Shown here: positions 3,173 to 13,802 of the stretch, in pieces
How positions within the stretch are numbered: position 1 is the stretch's first letter
How the letters are laid out: every line of letters begins with the position of its first letter
Source: Oceanispirochaeta sp.
Lineage (GTDB): Bacteria > Spirochaetota > Spirochaetia > DSM-2461
Direction of reading: 5' to 3'
Length of the DNA: 64,000 nt
NCBI GenBank assembly: GCA_963666275.2
Contig: CAXXOA010000001.1
Span: 1,664,001 to 1,728,000, forward strand
The notes under the pieces: generated by a model
Databases searched by the model: none
Seen by the model: the letters and a program-made list of their open reading frames with translations, nothing else
Told to the model about the DNA's origin: nothing
Translations under genes and position numbers: made by a program

Positions 3173-5062
3173 TCAGGCTATCTGATTCTCTTCTTCAAAG
3201 CTGTCCGGCCCGGAGGAACTGTCATCCCCTATGATATCAGAGGTTGTATAGAGGGATACTGTCTCATCAATAGACAGGGCTGAGTCTCCGATAAGAGAGG
3301 AATTCTCTGCAACCTTTGAGAGGGTTGTATTGATTTCACTAATCTGAGTCTGTATGTCTCTGATATTGGCAGATACCACACCGGATGTATTTTTCAGATG
3401 ATTCACAAGCTGTCCCTGTTCTTCTCCGGCAATGAGTATGTGTCCTGTGTTCTCCTTGATAACCTGGGAGACATCGGTGAGAGATCCCATGGCTGAGAGG
3501 ATCTGGCTGCCTCCTGATTTCAGTTCATTCATCGTCTGGGTTATTTCCGCCAGGGATTCACTGAACAGGTCTATTTCGCTGCTGATTTTCTTAAACACGG
3601 AAGAGGCTGTCTCACTGGAATCGGAGGCTTCGGAAATTCCTGAAATAACCTGCTTCAGGGTGTCCGAGATCATCCGGGAGTTTTCTGAAGAGGCCTCCGC
3701 CAGCTTTCTGATCTCATCGGCTACAACAGAAAATCCTTTGCCCGCTTCGCCCGCATGGGCGGCTTCGATGGCGGCATTCATGGCCAGGAGATTGGTTTGA
3801 TCGGCAATGGCATTGATAATATCCGCAATACCCGAGATCATATCGATATGGTTGTTGATCCTGGCGATGGACTGGGAGTTGGCATCCATCTTCTCTTCAC
3901 CCGAAACTGTCATATCCACCAGCTCTTTCATGACAGAAGTTTTTTTGTGGGTAATAGAGTTTACATTATCGATGGAGGCAATCATTTCCGTTACAGAGGC
4001 GGTGGATTCCTCCACCATAGCCTGCTGTTCGATCACCTGATCGTTCAGGGCGTTAACAGAGACATTCATCTGTTCCATGGACACTGTGGAGGTCCTTATG
4101 GAGTCGTCCAGGTCATTTATATTGTCGGCAATATTCAGAGACTGTTCCTGAATGGTATGAGTATTGGTCTCAGCTTCCCGGACATGTGAGTCCAGATCTT
4201 TCTGTACTGAGATATTCTCACGGGATATCTTTTTAAGATTATTCAGAGACTCTGTCAGGTGGACCTGAAACCTGTTCAGGTTTTTCCCCAGAAAGGAGAG
4301 TTCATCCTTGCCTTTTTCATCAAAGACAGTGGTAAGATCTCCGTTTTTCAGAAAATCCACATTTTTATCTATCCCCCCGATCCGTCCGGTCAGACTCAGG
4401 GACTGACGCATACTGATGATAAAAAACAGGACAATGAGAAGAAATGCCACCAGAAAAAGGACACCTTCTCCTATACGGTTCATTCTGGTGATTTCCTGAT
4501 CGATGATGTCAATGTTATCGTCGACTGTTTCCAGATAGGCATTCAGAGCTTCTCCGCTGTAATTGATCTGATTAATCATATTGAAAATATTGAAGCGGAT
4601 AGTCAGCATCTCAATCTCTTTGGATTCATAGGATAGCTCCAGGAGATCCAGTATGCCTGCGCTTTCGTCGGCGCTCCCCTTAAAAAGGGTTTCCACGGCT
4701 TTATCAATGGAAGAGTAGTAGTTATTCCTTATGGTTTTCAGATCCTGCATGGAATCTATGGAATCAACCACTTCTCTGGAAAAGGTTGTAAGATATTTAA
4801 AATTCAGCAGATCGTCAAAGTACTGATCCGATGCCTTTCTTATTTCCTTAAACTTCTTATAACTGGGGGGGAAATCTCCAATTACAATTTTTTCCATGGC
4901 TACCTGCTCTTCCAGAAGGCTTTCATAGAAATGGGCCAGCTTTTCCTGTTCCTGTGAAATATTGTTTGTATAGTTGGAATAGAGGATAAAGCCAAGACCA
5001 ATAAAAAGCAGGGAGAGTCCCTGCAGCAGATTAACCAATTGAATTCTGTGCTTGATTTTCAT
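3173..5062 (-). CDS. Methyl-accepting chemotaxis protein (2 TM, HAMP, signalling domain)
   Basis: [38 protein letters not shown]. Confidence 0.95.
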
Positions 5063-5184
5063 GATTTTTCCTATTTCTCTTAGTGGGTAAATATTTATTT
5101 TATAAGCTAGTATTTTTACACAACTCGCAGAAGGTTTAAATGCTGTTTGTTCACTTTTTTTCTTTTTTATTTATAAATGAACAA

Positions 5185-5639
5185 ATTGAATAAATAATAC
5201 CAATCAGAACCCCCGGCGGCTGAGCGGAGCCTACCAGATTGAATAAATAACACTAATGAGAATACCCGGCGGCTGAGCGGAACCAACCAGATTTATTAAA
5301 TAACACTAATGAGAACCCCCGGCGGCTGAGCGGAGCCGAAGCCCAATTGTTTAGATGAAGAACCCAACCTTTACACCATAAGACTCTTAATATTCTCGTT
5401 CTAAAGAAAACATATATTTGTTCTGTTAAACACCCGGCTTCGGCTCCGCTCAGCCACCGCTGGTTCTGGGAAGTATTATTTGACTGGAGTGGATTATTTG
5501 CTCCGCTCAGCCACCGTTGTTTCTGGGAGAATTATTTCAATGGAATAGATTATTGGCTCCGCTCAGCCACCGCTGGTTCTGGGAAGTATTAGTTCTTTGG
5601 GGTAGATTATTGGCTCCGCTCAGTCGCCACTGGTTCTGG
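5185..5639. repeat. REP-like composite element A: 3 direct 53-bp units, ~90-bp conserved spacer, 4 inverted 56-57-bp units
   Basis: Core GGCTGAGCGGA at 5218, 5271, 5324; reverse core CTCCGCTCAG at 5444, 5501, 5557, 5614. Confidence 0.9.
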
Positions 5640-5855
5640 TGACTATTGGACTCAAAAGAATCATAAGATTTTCAAACTGGTTCTTAGGTCTCTTCAGAAG
5701 ATTTCTGGACTACGATTGCTGCCAGGAAATCCTTTATAATCGGAAAATTCATTCCGGCGGAAAAAAATATGATTCTGTCTTAACTTGGGCGCAGCACCTG
5801 ACCGTTTTACAAGTTCCGGAAGGGGGAATCCGTAGTAGAGCAGGAGAGCTCAAAA

Positions 5856-6716
5856 TTATGGGGATTCAATTGATGCGTTTCGGGCTAATCGAATACCAGG
5901 GCCTGCATCTATACCGAACTCAAACAATCCTGCACGATCATAAGGAGTGAAGAAAAACTGCTCAGATGTTCTGGCCGATCCTCCACGTGCAATACGATAT
6001 CTCTTTTCTTTTAATTTTAAATAATCTTCTAAAGAGGGACCTGTAGGATTAACTAGTAGAATTGACGGATTATTTGGATATTCTAATGATAAATCCCAAC
6101 ACCATTCATCAATGTTTCCACTCATATCATACAATCCAAGTTCATTGGCTTTTTTAGAGCCAACCGAATGCGTAGTATCATCAGAATTCCAATCAGTCCA
6201 AGCGACCTCATTAAGATCATTACTGCCTGAGTATTCATATCCTTTGGAAAGATTCCCGCCACGAGCAGCAAATTCCCACTCTGCATCTGTTGGCAATCGA
6301 TATCCATTTGCTTCTCTTATCCATTCAACATCTTCACCGTTAATCTTGTAGCATTCTTCTAGACCATATTTTCTACTGACCCAGTTTGCATATTCAATAG
6401 CTAATATCCATTTAACTCCAATAGGAGAATCAGGATATAGACTTTCTCTTCTCATATCATAATATTCTCCCTGCCATTTATAAGAAGTTCCTGTTTCTTT
6501 AAGAAATTGCTCCCATTGTTCGACTGTTGTTTCATACTTTGATATATAATAGCTGTCCAATTTTATTCTTACAGATTGAGTTGAAAATCCCTCCTTTCCT
6601 AAGGTAAACTCTCCACCCTCGACAAGAACCATATCTTGGTCGATAGTCAATTTCTCAGCAGAGCAGGCAGTTAAAAATGTAGCTAAAACTAAAGTAATAA
6701 CAAATCTAATTTTCAT
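5856..6716 (-). CDS. FGE-sulfatase (SUMF1/C-type lectin fold) lipoprotein; candidate immunity protein
   Basis: Lipobox FLTAC; YRLPTDAEWEFAARGG, ANELGLYDMSGNIDEWCWD, RGGS motifs; GGAG RBS before ATG 6716; AT-rich. Confidence 0.85.
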   Translation of the reverse strand: MKIRFVITLVLATFLTACSAEKLTIDQDMVLVEGGEFTLGKEGFSTQSVRIKLDSYYISKYETTVEQWEQFLKETGTSYKWQGEYYDMRRESLYPDSPIGVKWILAIEYANWVSRKYGLEECYKINGEDVEWIREANGYRLPTDAEWEFAARGGNLSKGYEYSGSNDLNEVAWTDWNSDDTTHSVGSKKANELGLYDMSGNIDEWCWDLSLEYPNNPSILLVNPTGPSLEDYLKLKEKRYRIARGGSARTSEQFFFTPYDRAGLFEFGIDAGPGIRLARNASIESP

Positions 6717-6727
6717 GCTATTCTCCA

Positions 6728-9700
6728 TTAGAAGTCCATCCATGATAAAGTCCTATAGCGGTATGAATTGATATCGCTCCATGACAATTGGTTCGGAAAT
6801 GGGTCAATTGGATCATAGCCATTTCGATACATATAATGGTGCTGTTCTCCTTTGTTCTTACCATATATACCAACATCAGCCATTGTATAGTCAGAATTCA
6901 AATAGCTTTCTAAACTGCTGAAATCTGATCCTTTCCCAAGGTATTGTGAAGAGTTAAATTCTGTTCCTAAAAGCTTCAGGTATGAATCATATTCTTTTAC
7001 GAGTCCATCATCTCTAATCAATCTATTATCATTTGCGGTCTTTAACGCATCCCCAATCATATCAAGACTAATAGAAGGATCTCTTAACTGATAAAGGTTC
7101 ACTGGAACGGTTGCATAGCAAAGTGCATTTGTACCGAAGCCAGCCTCCTTTTCTATCTCCATCTGAGAAAATAGATGTTCTGTTGCTGTTCCAGCTTCAA
7201 ATCTATTGGAAAAATCAGTTGTGGAAGAAAGCATATCAGAAAGATATTTTTCTCTATCAGTCGGTTTAGCTCCATATTGCTCAGCAACATTCATCATTCT
7301 CATCTGATCCAAGATTGAATCCATATTACCATCATTTCGCCACGCATCAACAAACATACGATCATAGTCCAAAGCTGCGCCCATTCTATCGGACCACTCG
7401 CCAGATAAGTTAATAGAGATATGGTCTCCTTCATCATCTAGAAAATGGCCATCTCTGAAAGTCTCTGCTGATCCTTGAGCTACTAGCATTTCATTATTTA
7501 GTCGTGATTTCTCTTCAGGTGATAATTCTAAGCCAAGGATTTTCTGAAGATGTTCAGTTCTACTTCCGCCAACGAAGTGCCCTATTTCATGCTCTTCACC
7601 GTTCTCATCATCATAGAAAACACCGCCACGACCATCATCGTTTAACGTTAATGAACCATCAGGGTTTTCTATCAACTTCCAATAATCCGCGGAAGAATCA
7701 TACCCCCCCAAAGCCTGATCAACCTCACTCCAGTCTCCAGTACTAACAGCCGTCAGATAGGCATTGGCTTCCTTCTGGTTGAAACCGTTTAAAGAGTTCA
7801 TTCCATATGTCTGGGCCAAGGTTGCTCCTATGCTCATATGGGCCAATGCGGCTTTCATGGTTTCTTCCTGCTGCCCGAACTCTCCCGAATCCACACCGTC
7901 CCGGAAGGCTTCATGGCTCATCAGTACGGCCAGATCCAGACTGCCTTTGCCGTCCATGTTCAAATCAATGATCCTTTTTCCATCGGAACCGACTGTAGTA
8001 TACCCATCATAATCCTGACCTTTTCCAGTTGTAAATGCGGCATCGCCGTTTATGATATCATCATACAGAGCGCTTGTCTCGTTCATTTCTGCGGAGTAGA
8101 GGGTGCGCATCCCCGCATAAAGTTGTCTGTCTACTCCGGACTGACGGATAGCTTTGTTCTGTTTAAAAACTTCCATACCGGCCATGGCCTTTTGCAGTGC
8201 TCCCACGCTGACATCGGTACCGCCAGTTCCCACATTCAACAGGCTTCTGTCTCCGCCCAGATTCAGTTCCAGCAGTCCCGATTGAACCAGGCCGTTTTTG
8301 CCCTCTATGCCGAACATTCCGAAGTTCATTACGTTCAATGTGGTTTCTCCGGTCATGCCGTATTGGATAGCAGAGGAGGTGAGACCACCGGCCAGGCCAG
8401 AGAGGGCGCTGAAATTGGCTTTTGTCTCATTGATATAACCGAAGGATGCCAGATCCATAGTGCTGGTGACTCCCGCACCGGCCATGCTGCTTATGTAGGA
8501 GGTGCTGGTATTGTCCCAGCTTGTCATGGTATTGAAAGTGTTCCAGTTGAAACTGTCTCCTTCGAAGGCCTGAATAGCGGCGGAGCTGTAGGTATTGGCT
8601 GCTGTGGAAGCACCAGCCAGGGCTGTATCGGTTACTACTTCACCGAATTGACCGGCAGCAGTATCACCGAATGTCAGTAGCTGAGAACTATCCAAGCCCG
8701 ATGAAGCAGCACCAATGCCATAACCGGCAGCTGATACTACCGCCTTCTTTCCGAAAGATCCCCAAGCCTGGCCCGCATCTGTCCCGTTTTGAACATCCAG
8801 AGCTGTAAAAAGGGCATCGTCCATCATACCTACCATAAGAGCCGCACCGGGGCCTAAAAAGGCGCTGGCTGTAATGCTAACGGCTATATCCGTCACACTT
8901 CTGATTGTGGGAGCCCCGATAAAACCGTCGGAACTGCCGTCGTTATCAGCATCATCATCCCAGAGTTTCTGGTTGTAGGTGGGAGTATTGACAGTCGCCA
9001 GGCCCCTGTAGAGACGGGCCTGCTGGATGCTGAAATCTTTGTAGATCCGGCCCATTTCTCCATAACCTTCGGTTTTCACTTTTTCTGGCTTATCCTCTCT
9101 CATCTCAGGGCCGTAGCCGACGTAATAGTTGAATAAGCCTATTGTCTTTGTATGTTTTCCTACATCTTGAACAACATCGTTTTCATCGGTATAGGATTTA
9201 TTGTATTGAGCTGATGCTTTAAAGGCATCTTCCTGGGCTTTCAGGTGGGCCAGAAACTCTTTATCCAGTCCTGTCCCGTTATCCGCTTCTTTGTCTTTCT
9301 GGGGGCCGAATATTATAGTTAGATAGCGGTTCATATTTTCACGAGCTTTATTCACACGGGCCTGAATCAGGACGCTGTTGAGCTTTTCCAAAGTATTGAT
9401 AGAAAGATCGACCCCGTGGTTAAAAGCCGGGGCGGTATAGTACTTATAGGCTTCTATTTTGTGATCCTCCATCTCAATACCGCCGAATACGGAAGAATCG
9501 ATTATAACTGACCTTTTATACTGTTTACCCTGTCGACTGTAACCGCCGGCATACAATGTACTGTCTACACTATCATCAACGCTTTCATTGGCGTTTTCAA
9601 TACTATCATCAACAGACTCTTCCGTTTCTTTCATCATATCAAGCATTTTGTACGCCTGGGCCAGAGCCAGGGACTTCTGCAATTCTTCCTTCAGATCCCG

Positions 9701-9889
9701 CTGTTGCTCTTCCAGGCCCAGTATCTGGCTGTCCGTTTCCGGCAGTGAGGGGAGAGCCGTGGCCAGAATGGCATTGTGATGACCCGTCCGGCTTGTTAAA
9801 GTCTTTATTGAATCCAGAAGGCTGTAAATGGTGGTCCCATCAAGTGCATCGGAAACAATATCGTGAACATCCCCGGGAGACGTCGTCAT
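6728..9889 (-). CDS. Large polymorphic-toxin-like protein, probably the 5'-truncated C-terminal part of a giant protein, with papain-like C-terminal domain
   Basis: 1053 aa; no signal peptide or RBS; Gly/Ala-rich hydrophobic middle; zincin-like SHEAFRDG...EE; DYWKL, then AT-rich tail with LCYAT...QHHYMY...IDPF (Cys-His-Asp order). Confidence 0.6.
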   Translation of the reverse strand: MTTSPGDVHDIVSDALDGTTIYSLLDSIKTLTSRTGHHNAILATALPSLPETDSQILGLEEQQRDLKEELQKSLALAQAYKMLDMMKETEESVDDSIENANESVDDSVDSTLYAGGYSRQGKQYKRSVIIDSSVFGGIEMEDHKIEAYKYYTAPAFNHGVDLSINTLEKLNSVLIQARVNKARENMNRYLTIIFGPQKDKEADNGTGLDKEFLAHLKAQEDAFKASAQYNKSYTDENDVVQDVGKHTKTIGLFNYYVGYGPEMREDKPEKVKTEGYGEMGRIYKDFSIQQARLYRGLATVNTPTYNQKLWDDDADNDGSSDGFIGAPTIRSVTDIAVSITASAFLGPGAALMVGMMDDALFTALDVQNGTDAGQAWGSFGKKAVVSAAGYGIGAASSGLDSSQLLTFGDTAAGQFGEVVTDTALAGASTAANTYSSAAIQAFEGDSFNWNTFNTMTSWDNTSTSYISSMAGAGVTSTMDLASFGYINETKANFSALSGLAGGLTSSAIQYGMTGETTLNVMNFGMFGIEGKNGLVQSGLLELNLGGDRSLLNVGTGGTDVSVGALQKAMAGMEVFKQNKAIRQSGVDRQLYAGMRTLYSAEMNETSALYDDIINGDAAFTTGKGQDYDGYTTVGSDGKRIIDLNMDGKGSLDLAVLMSHEAFRDGVDSGEFGQQEETMKAALAHMSIGATLAQTYGMNSLNGFNQKEANAYLTAVSTGDWSEVDQALGGYDSSADYWKLIENPDGSLTLNDDGRGGVFYDDENGEEHEIGHFVGGSRTEHLQKILGLELSPEEKSRLNNEMLVAQGSAETFRDGHFLDDEGDHISINLSGEWSDRMGAALDYDRMFVDAWRNDGNMDSILDQMRMMNVAEQYGAKPTDREKYLSDMLSSTTDFSNRFEAGTATEHLFSQMEIEKEAGFGTNALCYATVPVNLYQLRDPSISLDMIGDALKTANDNRLIRDDGLVKEYDSYLKLLGTEFNSSQYLGKGSDFSSLESYLNSDYTMADVGIYGKNKGEQHHYMYRNGYDPIDPFPNQLSWSDINSYRYRTLSWMDF

Positions 9890-9915
9890 ATCCGGAATTA
9901 GGGTGAAAAGAACAT

Positions 9916-10281
9916 TTATTGTTTGACCATAAAGAAATTATCTTCAACCATAATTCCATTATTTAAAATGGTACCAATATAATTGAAACCATCTGAGACA
10001 AAAGAAATTTCCTCTCCTAAAATTGTATATGATCCCATTTCAAACGCTATTGTTCCAGCGCTATTTTCCTTGTATCGATCCACGGAATAGCTGAACATCC
10101 CCTCAGTTTCGTTTTTATTCATTAAGCCAATTACAGCAATATCTCTATATTCCTCTGTTTCTGTAACACAAGTGTACAGAATCGGCTCACCCGATTGCCC
10201 ATTGGAATTTGAGCTATTTGTTGTAGAACAAGATGTGAGAAACAAATAAATAGATACGACAAGAATGAAGAATTTTTTCAT
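9916..10281 (-). CDS. Small lipoprotein of unknown function
   Basis: MKKFFILVVSIYLFLTSC lipobox; GGAAGG RBS; AT-rich. Confidence 0.8.
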   Translation of the reverse strand: MKKFFILVVSIYLFLTSCSTTNSSNSNGQSGEPILYTCVTETEEYRDIAVIGLMNKNETEGMFSYSVDRYKENSAGTIAFEMGSYTILGEEISFVSDGFNYIGTILNNGIMVEDNFFMVKQ

Positions 10282-10394
10282 TAATACCTTCCTTATTATG
10301 GTTTACATTTATATAATAAATAAACGTTCATCTACTTTATATGATTTATAAATGAACTAGTCAATCCTTTTAGAAGAATAGCTGCTACTAAAGA

Positions 10395-10854
10395 ATAAAA
10401 CTATCCAGAACCCCCGTTGGCTGAGCGGAGCCAACCATATTGAACAAATAAAACTAATGAGAATCCCCGGCGGTTGAGCGGAGCCAACCATATTGAACCA
10501 ATAAACCTAATCAGAACCCCCGGTGGCTGAGCGGAGCCGAAGCCCAATTGTTTATGAGAAGAACCATCCTTTACACCATAAGACTCTTAAAATTCTCGTA
10601 CTAAAGAAAACATATATATTATTCTATTGAACTGTGGCTTCGGCTCCGCTCAGCCACCGCTGGTTCTGGGAAGTATTAGTTCTTTGGGGTAGATTATTGG
10701 CTCCGCTTAGCTGTAGCTGTTTCTGGATGTAATATTTCTCTGGAGAGGATTAATATCACCGAAGTCGAAGTTGCCGTTAACAAATAATAAAACTAATGAG
10801 AACCCCCGTTGGCTGAGCGGAGCCGAAGCCCGGCTCAGTCGCCGCTGGTCCCGG
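10395..10854. repeat. REP-like composite element B
   Basis: Forward cores at 10419, 10472, 10525 (53-bp period); spacer homologous to element A; reverse cores at 10644, 10701; extra forward core at 10811. Confidence 0.9.
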
Positions 10855-10899
10855 AAAGAATGAATTCTATAAAGGGAAATCCATAGAGTTTTCCTCAAA

Positions 10900-11841
10900 T
10901 TAGGATTCGAGCATGTATTTCATAAGCTCATACATATGTGGCGCTTCGTAATCCAGGACCCGCCTGAAAGAGGGTTCCTCCATATCGCGCCCCAGGGATT
11001 GGGCTTTCTCAAGATATTCCAGGGAAAGAGGGAGGTCCTCCAAGCTGATACTGTACTGGAACAGGTTGAGCGCAGCAGCCACTTTGTCACCCAAATTAGC
11101 TTGCGGGTCTTCCAAAATCGGCAGGAGAATTTCTGTTACAGCCTTGTCGTTGCTCTCAAGTTCATCCCTGGTATAACAATCGGATAGGTTGATTTTTGAA
11201 TTATTATCATCAGAGTTTTCCAATTGCTTATAATAGGCGGTATCAGACAGGTCTGAGGCTTTAACCATGGATCCCATGGAAAAAATGACACCGTTGGTGA
11301 ACCAGTTGAAATTGGGCATTATCGCACCATTAAATACTGTGATTTTCCTTTTACCTGTTGCTTTCTCAGTTGATACAAGGCAGTTGGCAACAATTTCCAG
11401 AATATATTGTGATCCCTCGGGTGCCGCCTGAGAAGGGGTATGGAGGGAAGAATACAAGACAAGGTTTTCACCGTCTTTGAAGTAACTTCCCAGGGCTGTC
11501 ATTCTGTAGATATTGGGATCATCCGTTATCGGTATATTGTTGAACAGTCCATCCAACAGCTCCTTTTTTGCCTGGAGCGGCAGTGTTTCATGCAGTTCAA
11601 ATTGCTCCATAATTGAGTATAACCACACAATTTTACCGAAATCCCGTATAGTTACAGTCCCGTTTTCCGGTACAAAACGATCCAATACTCTTATTTCCTG
11701 TGGAGGAATTTCCGCTTTACTAAGACTTTCATCGCTGAAAACCCATTTCTGAGTTGCCGCATCCGAGTTGGTAGTACAGGAAGGGAATACTAACATCAGT
11801 AGTAAGGTAATAAGGAAAAGCCCTATTGTTTTTTTATTCAT
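10900..11841 (-). CDS. Lipoprotein of unknown function with helical/TPR-like C-terminus
   Basis: Signal peptide ending VFPSC; AGGAG RBS; lies between repeat clusters. Confidence 0.75.
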   Translation of the reverse strand: MNKKTIGLFLITLLLMLVFPSCTTNSDAATQKWVFSDESLSKAEIPPQEIRVLDRFVPENGTVTIRDFGKIVWLYSIMEQFELHETLPLQAKKELLDGLFNNIPITDDPNIYRMTALGSYFKDGENLVLYSSLHTPSQAAPEGSQYILEIVANCLVSTEKATGKRKITVFNGAIMPNFNWFTNGVIFSMGSMVKASDLSDTAYYKQLENSDDNNSKINLSDCYTRDELESNDKAVTEILLPILEDPQANLGDKVAAALNLFQYSISLEDLPLSLEYLEKAQSLGRDMEEPSFRRVLDYEAPHMYELMKYMLES

Positions 11842-11914
11842 TTCTTTCTCCTTTGAATTATGTTGAATACCCTATAAACACGTGGTTTGATCCCTGTGAT
11901 TCAAAAAAATTATG

Positions 11915-12710
11915 AAATGTTCTGAGAAGTACCATCCTCTCCACCAAAGCACTCTTAAAATATTCTCCCTAATGTACAGTTGTGTTTGTTATGTTAAACT
12001 CTGGCTTCGGCTCCGCTCAGCCACCGCTGGTTCTGGGGAGAATTATTTCTTTGGAGTAGATTATTGGCTCCGCTCAGCCACCGCTGGTTCTGGGGAGAAT
12101 TATTTCACTGGTGTCGATTATTGGCTCCGCTTAGACGCAGCTTTTTCTGGATGTCATATTTCTCTGGAGAGGAATAATGTCAGCGAGGTCGCAATTGCCG
12201 ATTACAAATAATTAAACCTAACTAGATATCCCAAGTCGTTGAGCGGAACCAACCAAATTGAACAAATAACACTAATTAGAACCCACCGTGGCTGAGCGGA
12301 TGGTTGCTGAACGAAGTCGAAGTAGCCGAAATACCCATCCCGGAATAAATAACACTAATGAGAAATGACGGTGGCTGAGCGGATGGTTGCTGAGCGAAGT
12401 CGAAGTAGCCGAAATACCCATCCCGGAATAAATAACACTAATTAGAACCCACCGTGGCTGAGCGGATGGTTGCTGAGCGAAGTCGAAGTAGCCGAAATGC
12501 CCATCCCGGAATAAATAACACTAATGAGAAATGACGGTGGCTGAGCGGATGGTTGCTGAGCGAAGTCGAAGTAGCCGAAATGCCCATCCCGGAATAAATA
12601 ACACTAATGAGAAATGACGGTGGCTGAGCGGAGCCGAAGCCCAATTGTTTTTGAGAAGAACCATCCTCTCCACCAAAACACTCTAAAAATGTTCTTTCTA
12701 ATGTACAGAT
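11915..12710. repeat. REP-like composite element C, including four 83-bp tandem units with a nested 24-bp motif
   Basis: Reverse cores at 12011, 12068, 12125; forward cores at 12290, 12373, 12456, 12539, 12622 (83-bp period); conserved spacer at both ends. Confidence 0.9.
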
Positions 12711-12757
12711 TTGACTCTACTAAGCAAAATTGAAGTAAAACAAACATAGTTTCAGTT

Positions 12758-13141
12758 ATGAAATATATGAAACAGAAACAGCGGGAACTGAAATCCGGAT
12801 ACATGTATATTCTGATCTGCGGAGACGGTTCCTATTATGTGGGCAGTACAAATAATCTAAAAATGAGAATGGATCAGCACAATAGGGGAGAAGGATCGAA
12901 TTACACCAGTAAACGTCTCCCTGTAAAGCTTGTTTATAAGGAATGGTATGAATCTGTAGGACATGCTTACCTGCGGGAAAAACAGATTCAGAAATGGAAC
13001 AGGGAAAAAAAGGAAGCTCTGATCAAAAAGAACCTGAAATCTTTGCATACACATGCCGCCTGCCGGAATAAATCCCACTCCCGCAACTTCCGTAAAGAAA
13101 AAACAAAAAGAACTCTCGGCAGAAACAGATTGATTAAATAA
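12758..13141 (+). CDS. Small GIY-YIG nuclease (UPF0213/YhbQ-like) flanked by REP-like repeats
   Basis: GYMYILICGDGSYYVGSTNNL..R..QH..G...YT..RLPV.LVY.E....A..RE.QI.KW.R.KKEALI; start may be 12758 or 12767. Confidence 0.92.
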   Translation: MKYMKQKQRELKSGYMYILICGDGSYYVGSTNNLKMRMDQHNRGEGSNYTSKRLPVKLVYKEWYESVGHAYLREKQIQKWNREKKEALIKKNLKSLHTHAACRNKSHSRNFRKEKTKRTLGRNRLIK

Positions 13142-13206
13142 CACTAATTAGAACACCCGGTGGCTGAGCGGATGGTTGCTGAGCGAAGTCGAAGTAGCCG
13201 AAGCCC
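13129..13206 (+). repeat. Single downstream copy of the nested repeat unit
   Basis: GGCTGAGCGGA-TGGTTGCTGAGCGAAGTCGAAGTA-GCCGAAGCCC with core at 13162; the unit's AT-rich flank overlaps the GIY-YIG stop codon. Confidence 0.9.
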
Positions 13207-13328
13207 AATTCTTTAACAAAAGCCCCAAAATTTTTTTCCCATTTTGAATCACCATCCCATTCCTCTGCGTAAAAGATTTACAAACCAGGAAAACCTGAAA
13301 GTGCAACTATTACAAAGGAATCTATTAT

Positions 13329-13802
13329 ATGAAAAAAAATAGGCATCTGCGGTCTGGAGGTGTTCTTGTACTGCTCCTGCTCACATCCTGTTCATCCCTG
13401 AAGATCTCTCCCCGTTCCACCCAGACCATCATCCAGCCGGCCTGGGAGGAGACCCGCAGTTCCTACAGCTACATTCCCGGCGTGATTCTGGTGGAAACCA
13501 ATATCTACGATCAGGAGATCCGGCGTAACGGGTCGGAGAACCTGGACCTGATACTGGACCGGCTGAATGCGGAAAACACGGAACATCCCTCCCGGAAGGC
13601 CTCGGTGGCCCTGTATCTCAGGGAGTATTCCTTTATGAAAGATTACAAACCCCTGAAAACCCTGTCTGTCAAAATTGTGGTGGAAGATGAACTGGGAACT
13701 CCCCTGGGCAGCTATTTTTACAGCACCGAATCTACAGACAGTTTTTTCTCCTCATCCTATCTGTACAGTCGGATTGAAAAAGGGATGGCAAAGCTTTTCT
13801 GA
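13329..13802 (+). CDS. Lipoprotein, first gene of TolC/RND operon
   Basis: Lipobox LLTSC; TGATG overlap with next gene. Confidence 0.75.
   Translation: MKKNRHLRSGGVLVLLLLTSCSSLKISPRSTQTIIQPAWEETRSSYSYIPGVILVETNIYDQEIRRNGSENLDLILDRLNAENTEHPSRKASVALYLREYSFMKDYKPLKTLSVKIVVEDELGTPLGSYFYSTESTDSFFSSSYLYSRIEKGMAKLF

Follow-up and report, generated by a model that had tools for sequence, protein, structure and literature searches.

The stretch of DNA considered here, hereafter the window, comprises 64,000 nucleotides of the genome of Oceanispirochaeta sp. (GCA_963666275.2, contig CAXXOA010000001.1, positions 1,664,001 to 1,728,000; genome G000 in our set). Between positions 5180 and 13202 it carries the gene of a small GIY-YIG nuclease together with arrays of a short tagged hairpin. 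A first-pass annotation had described an architecture recurring three times, in which direct 53-bp units are followed by a conserved spacer of ~90 bp and by inverted units of 56 to 57 bp, with a fourth spacer leading into the nuclease gene and one more unit after it. The features that we recognize are listed below, in window coordinates; clade Q is the protein group defined in the trees described further on.

5180..5343, plus strand: left arm of element A, three 53-bp units, only the last hairpin being intact
5344..5435, plus strand: spacer A, its first 65 nt common to spacers B, C, and D and to the distant copy E
5436..5640, minus strand: right arm of element A, four inverted units of 56 to 57 bp
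10381..10545, plus strand: left arm of element B, three 53-bp units
10546..10635, plus strand: spacer B, identical to spacer A at 58 of the first 65 nt
10636..10835, no strand assigned: right arm of element B, two inverted units (the first intact, the other degenerate), a linker common with C, and a direct unit at 10773-10833
11915..12206, no strand assigned: copy C, a spacer without a left arm, then inverted 57-bp units and the linker
12207..12641, plus strand: array D, a degenerate unit of the 53 type followed by four 83-bp units and a terminal intact hairpin
12642..12757, plus strand: spacer D, the 116-bp 5' leader of the nuclease gene
12758..13141, plus strand: GIY-YIG nuclease gene, 127 aa, PF01541 at 63.7 bits, clade Q
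13123..13202, plus strand: downstream unit with a nested hairpin, in the same direction as the nuclease gene

The threefold architecture is complete in element A (5180-5640) and element B (10381-10835), each made of a left arm, an ~91-bp spacer, and an inverted arm, whereas copy C lacks the left arm. The direct 53-bp units were found in A and B (core starts at 5219, 5272, and 5325 and at 10420, 10473, and 10526, respectively), and the inverted units were confirmed in the arrays; the units preceding the nuclease gene, however, have a period of 83 bp, because each of the four in array D has a second hairpin, of 24 nt, nested in its loop. Furthermore, the right half of element B recurs in copy C. 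The spacers lie where they had been placed (5344-5435, 10546-10635, 11915-12002, and the fourth from 12642), but just the first ~65 nt are common to all five copies, the fifth, E, being located at C1:2257190-2257274 of the source genome. Over these 65 nt, copies A to E are identical at 44 to 58 positions, and the remainder of spacer D matches the other spacers at 11 to 14 of 27. We confirmed that the fourth spacer leads into the GIY-YIG open reading frame (ORF) and that one more unit follows the gene, with an AT-rich leader that overlaps its last codons.

The proposal that A and B are nonautonomous derivatives of a nuclease-bearing element was not borne out, as the common part consists of the hairpin and ~65 nt of leader, and a tblastn search for nuclease remnants in A, B, C, and E, extended to E = 10, returned the gene itself and two chance matches on C2. 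The hairpin and the next ~25 nt of the D leader align with the short leader of a homologous gene in the nearest relative (G004), the likeness being weak outside the hairpin. Since the spacer is also common to the copies, it likely derives from the leader of the nuclease gene. The nuclease gene has units of the same direction on both sides, an arrangement nearly as frequent as inverted flanks (18 versus 20 of 48 doubly flanked loci). A mosaic produced by local duplication, comparable to a bacterial interspersed mosaic element (BIME), fits A and B as well as a precisely deleted element does. No Rfam family was matched in 4800-13600. An assembly artifact is not supported: contigs of runs X1 and X2, which represent one sample, possibly the source sample, cover 30 of 30 bins of 4800-13600 with one differing letter and three single-letter gaps, and the long pieces spanning the region show no difference.

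A tagged hairpin whose core is fixed and whose stem varies

The repeats are built from a hairpin of ~23 nt in which the core is constant and the stem varies; it can be written as 5'-CG[G/T/C]T-xyz-(T/C)-GA-G(N5-6)C-GA-(A/G)-z'y'x', where the tag CG[G/T/C]T stands 5' of the stem and the outer stem covaries (CCC/GGG, GGC/GCC, CAC/GTG, AGC/GCT, and TCC/GGA around the core). The exact 20-mer singled out by the first-pass annotation has 8 copies in the 5.27-Mb genome, 7 of them in the window; because stem bases vary and covary, the family is larger than this 20-mer, and the core TGAGCGRAGYCGAA has 63 exact copies genome-wide, compared with 0 for the reversed control. In the window, 12 matches to the core occur, all within 5327-13193, against 0.10 expected. 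Among 152 cores from homologous loci, picked without a stem requirement and uncorrected for relatedness, the three variable stem positions pair in fractions of 0.95, 0.90, and 0.88, versus 0.53, 0.32, and 0.36 with shuffled partners. Along the stem, pairing drops from 0.71 at position 5 to 0.41 at position 8. ORFs of at least 200 aa make up 81% of the genome, and 59 of the 63 cores lie outside them.

Judged by eye, ~11 of 15 tandem arrays end on the 3' side in an intact hairpin that is preceded by copies truncated within the 3' arm, and the shortest array periods are 23 to 25 nt. Units of the same length, 23 to 25 nt, are also nested inside the loops of other hairpins, with inner and outer stems that differ: 10 such copies are present in G000 and none in the reversed-genome control, and ~10 well-formed cases were noticed elsewhere, among 172 nuclease loci and 35 repeat loci scanned. 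The inner hairpin sequence varies with the nuclease sub-lineage. A long-loop variant (stem-GAGT...ATCGA-stem) occurs at the clade Q genes of loci L035, L061, L072, L073, L076, L085, L089, and L102. Other palindromes, of the CCCCTAAAGGGG type, the CCCTCTCCC...GGGAGAGGG type, and the GTAGAGACGCG type, share intergenic regions with the hairpin (G000:C1:2257100-2257600, C2:1472800-1473000, and C2:1802600-1802900).

The nuclease clade and its association with the hairpin

The nuclease is a single-domain GIY-YIG protein of 127 aa, in which, apart from a weak, overlapping T5orf172 score, PF01541 alone exceeds the cutoff. The genome has no other small GIY-YIG gene, the second match being a 609-aa frame. 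Residues Y17, Y27, G29, R37, and E74 show no variation among 48 homologues drawn from the 120 matches listed, and the catalytic residues were matched to Y6, Y17, and E64 of SsnA by spacing, without a direct alignment. SsnA is, according to Chenal et al. 2025 (PMC11893778), a nuclease of family cd10448 that binds its hairpin and cuts single-stranded DNA (ssDNA) a few bases upstream. The best Protein Data Bank matches of our protein are the UPF0213 members 1ywl (E 8e-14) and 1zg2 (E 8e-11), and yazA is among the plasmid matches to it.

In the phylogenetic reconstruction, clade Q has a support of 92/82, and the query has its G004 homologue as sister in both the 134-row and the 48-row tree. The Ssn-like group is held by a 100/100 branch with the query outside, a placement repeated in the 134-row tree, and in the 48-row tree forcing the query inside it is rejected by the approximately unbiased (AU) test (p=0.024). 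This group is represented by the NTS/SRM-flanked stand-ins L215, L251, L299, L335, L339, and L351, N. meningitidis SsnA being absent from the tree. A 96/96 branch sets apart the YazA group, which contains B. subtilis YazA; the best trees leave the query outside this group, but forcing it inside is not rejected (p=0.24), and the Q and YazA groups lie on the same side of a weak branch (77/74). The query scores 149 bits on the Q profile versus 66 bits on the Ssn profile. A sister relationship of the nuclease with Ssn, read from the 134-row tree, was dropped, as the 48-row tree places Q, not firmly, between Ssn and YazA. By clade and motif, the nuclease thus falls outside Ssn, yet by analogy it likely works in a manner similar to Ssn and its SRM repeats.

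Clade Q was found in spirochaete-like genomes, Bacteroidota, and Chloroflexota. Some of its domains occur in long open frames of 295 to 635 aa (G235:C2:199222, G179:C1:1979450, G372:C22:167677, and G056:C1:557268), possibly in-frame insertions into host genes. In addition, an 87-aa GIY-YIG ORF lies inside an apparent 23S rRNA gene (L015:1441-1760, G033:C3:407460-407675) with a short inverted repeat at its bounds, and reads as an intron-like or intervening-sequence-like insertion in a spirochaete-like genome.

For the association analysis, we assembled 194 loci, namely, 80 with small GIY-YIG genes that ranked highest in a PF01541 list of the phylum, 80 from metagenomes, 24 viral, and 10 others; 173 of them, the source locus included, were left after a 90% identity filter. 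A single-protein search of genome contigs gave 5 loci. The pattern searched within 600 bp (4-bp stem, GA, G-N5-6-C, GA, stem) had been generalized after inspection of the copies of this genome. The hairpin was found at 82 of the 100 loci with an A1-profile score of at least 130, on both sides in 48 (same-direction flanks in 18, inverted in 20), at 10 of the 25 scoring 90 to 130, and at 2 of the 48 below 90, the shuffle expectation for the three classes being 0.7, 0.05, and 0.2. When the long-loop pattern, written post hoc after the misses were viewed, is included, the hairpin is present at 94 of the 100 top loci versus 0.5 in shuffles. By tree group, it accompanies 39/52 genes in Q, 9/12 in F, 2/23 in the Ssn-like group, 0/7 in the SLX-like group, and 0/40 canonical YazA-like genes, while the SRM pattern is found at 12/23 Ssn-like genes and at none in all other groups (Q, 0/52). 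None of the 24 viral YazA-like homologues left after the identity filter (n=11) has the hairpin. The hairpin is specific to clade Q and the neighboring F group, and the enrichment beside this nuclease clade that had been anticipated is supported by the contrast of 82/100 with 0/40.

The same contrast largely refutes the reading in which the association is incidental, with an ordinary UPF0213 repair nuclease lying in a repeat-rich region and the hairpins acting as RNA terminators or stabilizers. The UPF0213 structures retrieved as best matches, the AU result for a query within YazA, and the extragenic position of 59 of the 63 cores would all agree with it; but the 96/96 branch that sets the YazA group apart and the lack of the gene in most relatives speak against it as well, and we consider it very improbable.

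At the genome level, we examined 400 other genomes of the phylum, taking clade Q as matches at E<=1e-35 and counting two borderline genomes as lacking it. At least 10 exact cores are present in 15 of the 40 genomes with clade Q versus 15 of the 360 without (odds ratio, 13.8), kin not being independent and the exact-core pattern missing other inner variants. Within the genus, the gene is present in G000 and G004, where 63 and 25 cores were counted, and the nine genomes without it have 0 to 5. The distribution of the gene is patchy (40/400 other phylum genomes and 1/10 other genus members), and a single gene per genome is usual (32 of the 43 genomes in which a match reached E<=1e-30). Thus, the expected link between the repeats and the presence of the clade stands as an enrichment, even though repeat-rich genomes without the clade exist.

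Position in relatives and the genes between the arrays

In G004, the SDR gene (92% identity), the 313-aa gene (53%), the 157-aa gene, and the TolC-like gene are kept in the same order. The interval between the 313-aa and 157-aa genes measures 166 bp in G004, with no hairpin, and 1487 bp in G000, where it contains C, D, and the nuclease gene; element B is also absent from the G004 site. The G004 homologue of the nuclease (61% identity; 65% over aligned core columns) lies instead upstream of gapA, with a lipoprotein gene on its other side and six hairpins around it. In G000, the corresponding interval has no GIY-YIG gene; it contains an amidohydrolase gene, one RAYT-like gene (RAYT, REP-associated tyrosine transposase; REP, repetitive extragenic palindrome), and one degenerate nested hairpin, which aligns with one of the G004 copies. 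Filled and empty sites, which had been suggested as a point of comparison, are therefore reciprocal for the gene-plus-repeat block, and the gene either moved in one lineage or arrived twice; a target-site duplication is not readable at these sites. This comparison supports a mobile gene-plus-array block. In G003, which does not have the gene, one hairpin lies upstream of the 157-aa gene.

Beside the SDR gene, a gene pair at 501-2161 of the window is also conserved in G004; we take it to be umuC/umuD-like (DinB-type polymerase and S24-type protein).

The genes found between and beside the arrays are the following.

5856..6743, minus strand: FGE-sulfatase-like (PF03781) predicted lipoprotein
6728..9889, minus strand: 1053-aa ORF, orphan C-terminal third of an ~3100-aa protein with variable C termini
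9916..10281, minus strand: 121-aa predicted lipoprotein between arrays A and B, no family above the cutoff
10900..11841, minus strand: 313-aa predicted lipoprotein, a resident gene, present in G004 (53%) without a hairpin on either side

The ~3100-aa protein is matched in 9 of the 10 other genus members, and no Pfam family is above the cutoff for it in the cassette (window 5856-10281) or at L355:7143-17700. The source genome has a full-length paralogue (G000:C1, ~2247142-2256444), with copy E, a hairpin and spacer, just downstream. The tip of the 1053-aa ORF is 56% identical to that of the full-length locus of G006, whereas the full-length copy of G000 ends in another tip, weakly M23-like and below the Pfam cutoff. 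Moreover, the FGE-like gene is 71% identical to the gene that follows the full-length giant protein in G006, and it probably encodes the partner or immunity protein cognate to the fragment upstream of it. The 1053-aa ORF and the FGE-like lipoprotein would represent an orphan polymorphic-toxin-like tip with its partner. At the seven other genus loci scanned, no hairpin lies within 1.5 kb of the match to the ~3100-aa protein; therefore, that the hairpins take part in cassette exchange is just a possibility.

These genes bear on a reading in which the nuclease recognizes the hairpin but does not spread it, being a domesticated modulator of ssDNA restriction or recombination, with the arrays growing by replication slippage and the cassette moving by recombination between hairpins already in place. 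PMC11893778 reports that SsnA cuts NTS-bearing ssDNA and causes less transforming DNA to be integrated, and that NTS clusters lie near membrane-protein genes; comparably, a variable surface- or toxin-like cassette lies between A and B, and copy E stands after the full-length paralogue. The persistence of the repeats in genomes without the gene and the usual single gene per genome agree with such a role. However, the gene is patchy and changes site, and the stems of nested units are unlike those of the hairpins that host them, so local slippage alone is insufficient. We regard this reading as rather unlikely.

Proposed mechanism and comparison with known systems

Our preferred explanation, to which we give a probability of about 0.6, is that a clade-specific GIY-YIG nuclease likely binds its own hairpin in ssDNA and nicks there, seeding copies, arrays, and gene relocation. 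The nick would fall beside or within the hairpin and would give rise to new hairpin copies, to tandem arrays, and, occasionally, to relocation of the nuclease gene. By analogy with SsnA, recognition would be restricted to ssDNA and dependent on orientation, and the nick would be Mg dependent. Since a GIY-YIG hydrolase is not known to perform strand transfer, we invoke host repair of the nick, through template switch or recombination, as the putative, less supported source of duplications and insertions, the nuclease acting as the presumed driver of hairpin spread. Within the same explanation, A, B, and C would be gene-less modules of hairpin and leader that spread locally in a BIME-like manner.

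The pairing of nuclease and hairpin is well supported. Several observations nonetheless weigh against the proposed explanation. First, 15 of the 30 repeat-rich phylum genomes do not have a clade Q gene, which speaks against a strict dependence. In three of them (G045, G260, and G417) a hairpin-flanked F-group gene is present, but in the 12 of these 15 genomes that were checked, neither a Q nor an F gene was found in G323, G412, G100, G073, G333, G068, G371, G081, and G359. G033 has 18 cores without the gene, and G323, a single contig, has 64 cores, mostly tail-to-tail doublets 35 to 36 bp apart, with no cognate nuclease found. Therefore, the repeats either outlast the gene or have another driver. 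Second, sequences at the G000/G004 junctions are too diverged for a target-site duplication to be read, and co-resident clade Q genes share 60% identity in one and 65% in the other of the two genomes compared, which gives no sign that the gene was recently duplicated by replicative copying. Third, nearest-neighbor folding is not unusually stable (z of -0.19 to 0.75 in 5/5 stretches), standard folding favors another short stem, and the sheared G.A pairs of the inner GA/GA are our assumption, as is the GC-GNA-GC loop, which we take to be a stable DNA mini-hairpin. Finally, a degenerate hairpin lies ~280 bp upstream of the RAYT-like gene at C1:510108. The G323 doublets (L414, L418, L424, L430, and L434) are dispersed and REPIN-like, their driver being lost or other.

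It is also possible to hypothesize that another enzyme, a RAYT/TnpA-like HUH protein or a different factor, spreads the hairpins, and that the GIY-YIG gene is a passenger or a homing-type parasite at them. The repeat-rich genomes without the gene would be accounted for, and intergenic regions are indeed mosaics of several palindrome families. Furthermore, the source genome has seven Y1/RAYT-like genes of ~165 aa (L003-L009):

G000:C1:332266, 510108, and 1353732; C2:584078, 585130, 1013443, and 2114321

None of these lies in the window, in agreement with the first-pass annotation, and a RAYT flanked by the same motif, sought as a counterexample, was not found among them: inverted GGGACGGAGG...CCTCCGTCCC motifs stand on both sides of 7/7, in many cases as short tandem arrays. 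GGGACGGAGG/CCTCCGTCCC and the Y1 genes are a separate repeat-transposase family. No TnpB was seen in the 500-bp flanks of the seven genes, and one of the two tandem copies on C2 is frameshifted. In four repeat-rich genomes, the hairpin is present at 0/12 Y1 loci, and G333 has 43 cores and no Y1 match. On the basis of the different motif and of the 0/12 loci, RAYT was rejected as the partner of the hairpin. Since the inner sequence of the hairpin also tracks the nuclease sub-lineage, we find the passenger reading improbable.

A bolder version of the preferred explanation would make a second, undescribed GIY-YIG lineage of ~100 aa the autonomous driver of ssDNA hairpin cuts, loop insertion, and gene hopping, with modules that move toxin-tip cargo. 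The first-pass annotation had likewise seen the nuclease as the autonomous partner; clade and hairpin do co-occur across many taxa, but the repeats persist without a cognate gene, and we hold this version to be doubtful. Were it true, it would imply transposition-like mobility without a transposase and a large pool of stem-tolerant, core-specific ssDNA cutters. With regard to the explanation that we prefer, the locus defines an exact candidate substrate; should the clade prove active, it would be a further source of ssDNA-specific enzymes that recognize a constant core carried on a stem of changing sequence. The pairing of nuclease and hairpin is extended beyond cd10448 to a UPF0213-like clade, and the reciprocal filled and empty sites and the nested insertions provide comparative evidence of movement.

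Among known systems, Ssn (cd10448, GIY-YIG_unchar_3) is similar in having a small single-domain GIY-YIG gene (<150 aa) with oriented flanking hairpins, scattered and clustered, a catalytic Tyr, Tyr, and Glu, and a short conserved tag 5' of the stem. In contrast, the query protein does not group with the Ssn proteins (100/100 branch, AU p=0.024); its hairpin has a varying stem with a fixed inner core and departs from the SRM pattern, which has no match in window 5000-13400 and 54 matches genome-wide, overlapping 0/72 cores. The main text of PMC11893778 does not mention UPF0213, nor do the supplements searched (12 of 14 files) mention UPF0213 or cd10456; whether Ssn-type genes spread their repeats is left open by Chenal et al.

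The proteins UPF0213/YazA/YhbQ (B. subtilis yazA, L348) resemble the nuclease in the structure matches 1ywl and 1zg2 and in a common N-terminal pattern. However, canonical members have no flanking hairpins (0/40), yazA is located in a housekeeping operon, and clade Q is a separate, patchy group (92/82).

As in REP, REPIN, and BIME systems, we observed inverted hairpin doublets, alternating mosaics with conserved linkers, a mostly extragenic location, and usually one enzyme gene per genome. Different from REP-RAYT (TnpA-REP), the enzyme is a GIY-YIG hydrolase and not a Y1 HUH transposase, and the GTAG tag is absent. CGTC-tagged REP families, as described in the 2013 REP survey (PMC3733652), are tagged hairpins without a dedicated transposase in Bacteroidetes, Spirochaetes, and others, which that survey left unexplained and on which the present locus bears. 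Our hairpin differs in its CG[G/T/C]T tag, its outer stem of 4 to 5 bp, and its internal GA/GA loop, compared with stems of 8 to 9 bp; this separation is based on the text description of those families and not on consensus sequences, so overlap is possible. A pairing of GIY-YIG and REP beyond the Ssn paper was not found in literature searches, which do not cover figures or subscription journals; the core motif, in various spellings, retrieved unrelated papers only, and no SsnA follow-up from 2025 was among the matches listed. The REPIN-RAYT analogy made in the first-pass annotation fits, although an analogy with REP, RAYT, and BIME had already been drawn for Ssn by Chenal et al. 2025. Thus, the concept of a nuclease paired with a hairpin is already published with Ssn and NTS (PMC11893778), and what appears to be new here is a separate branch of the enzyme and a different hairpin.

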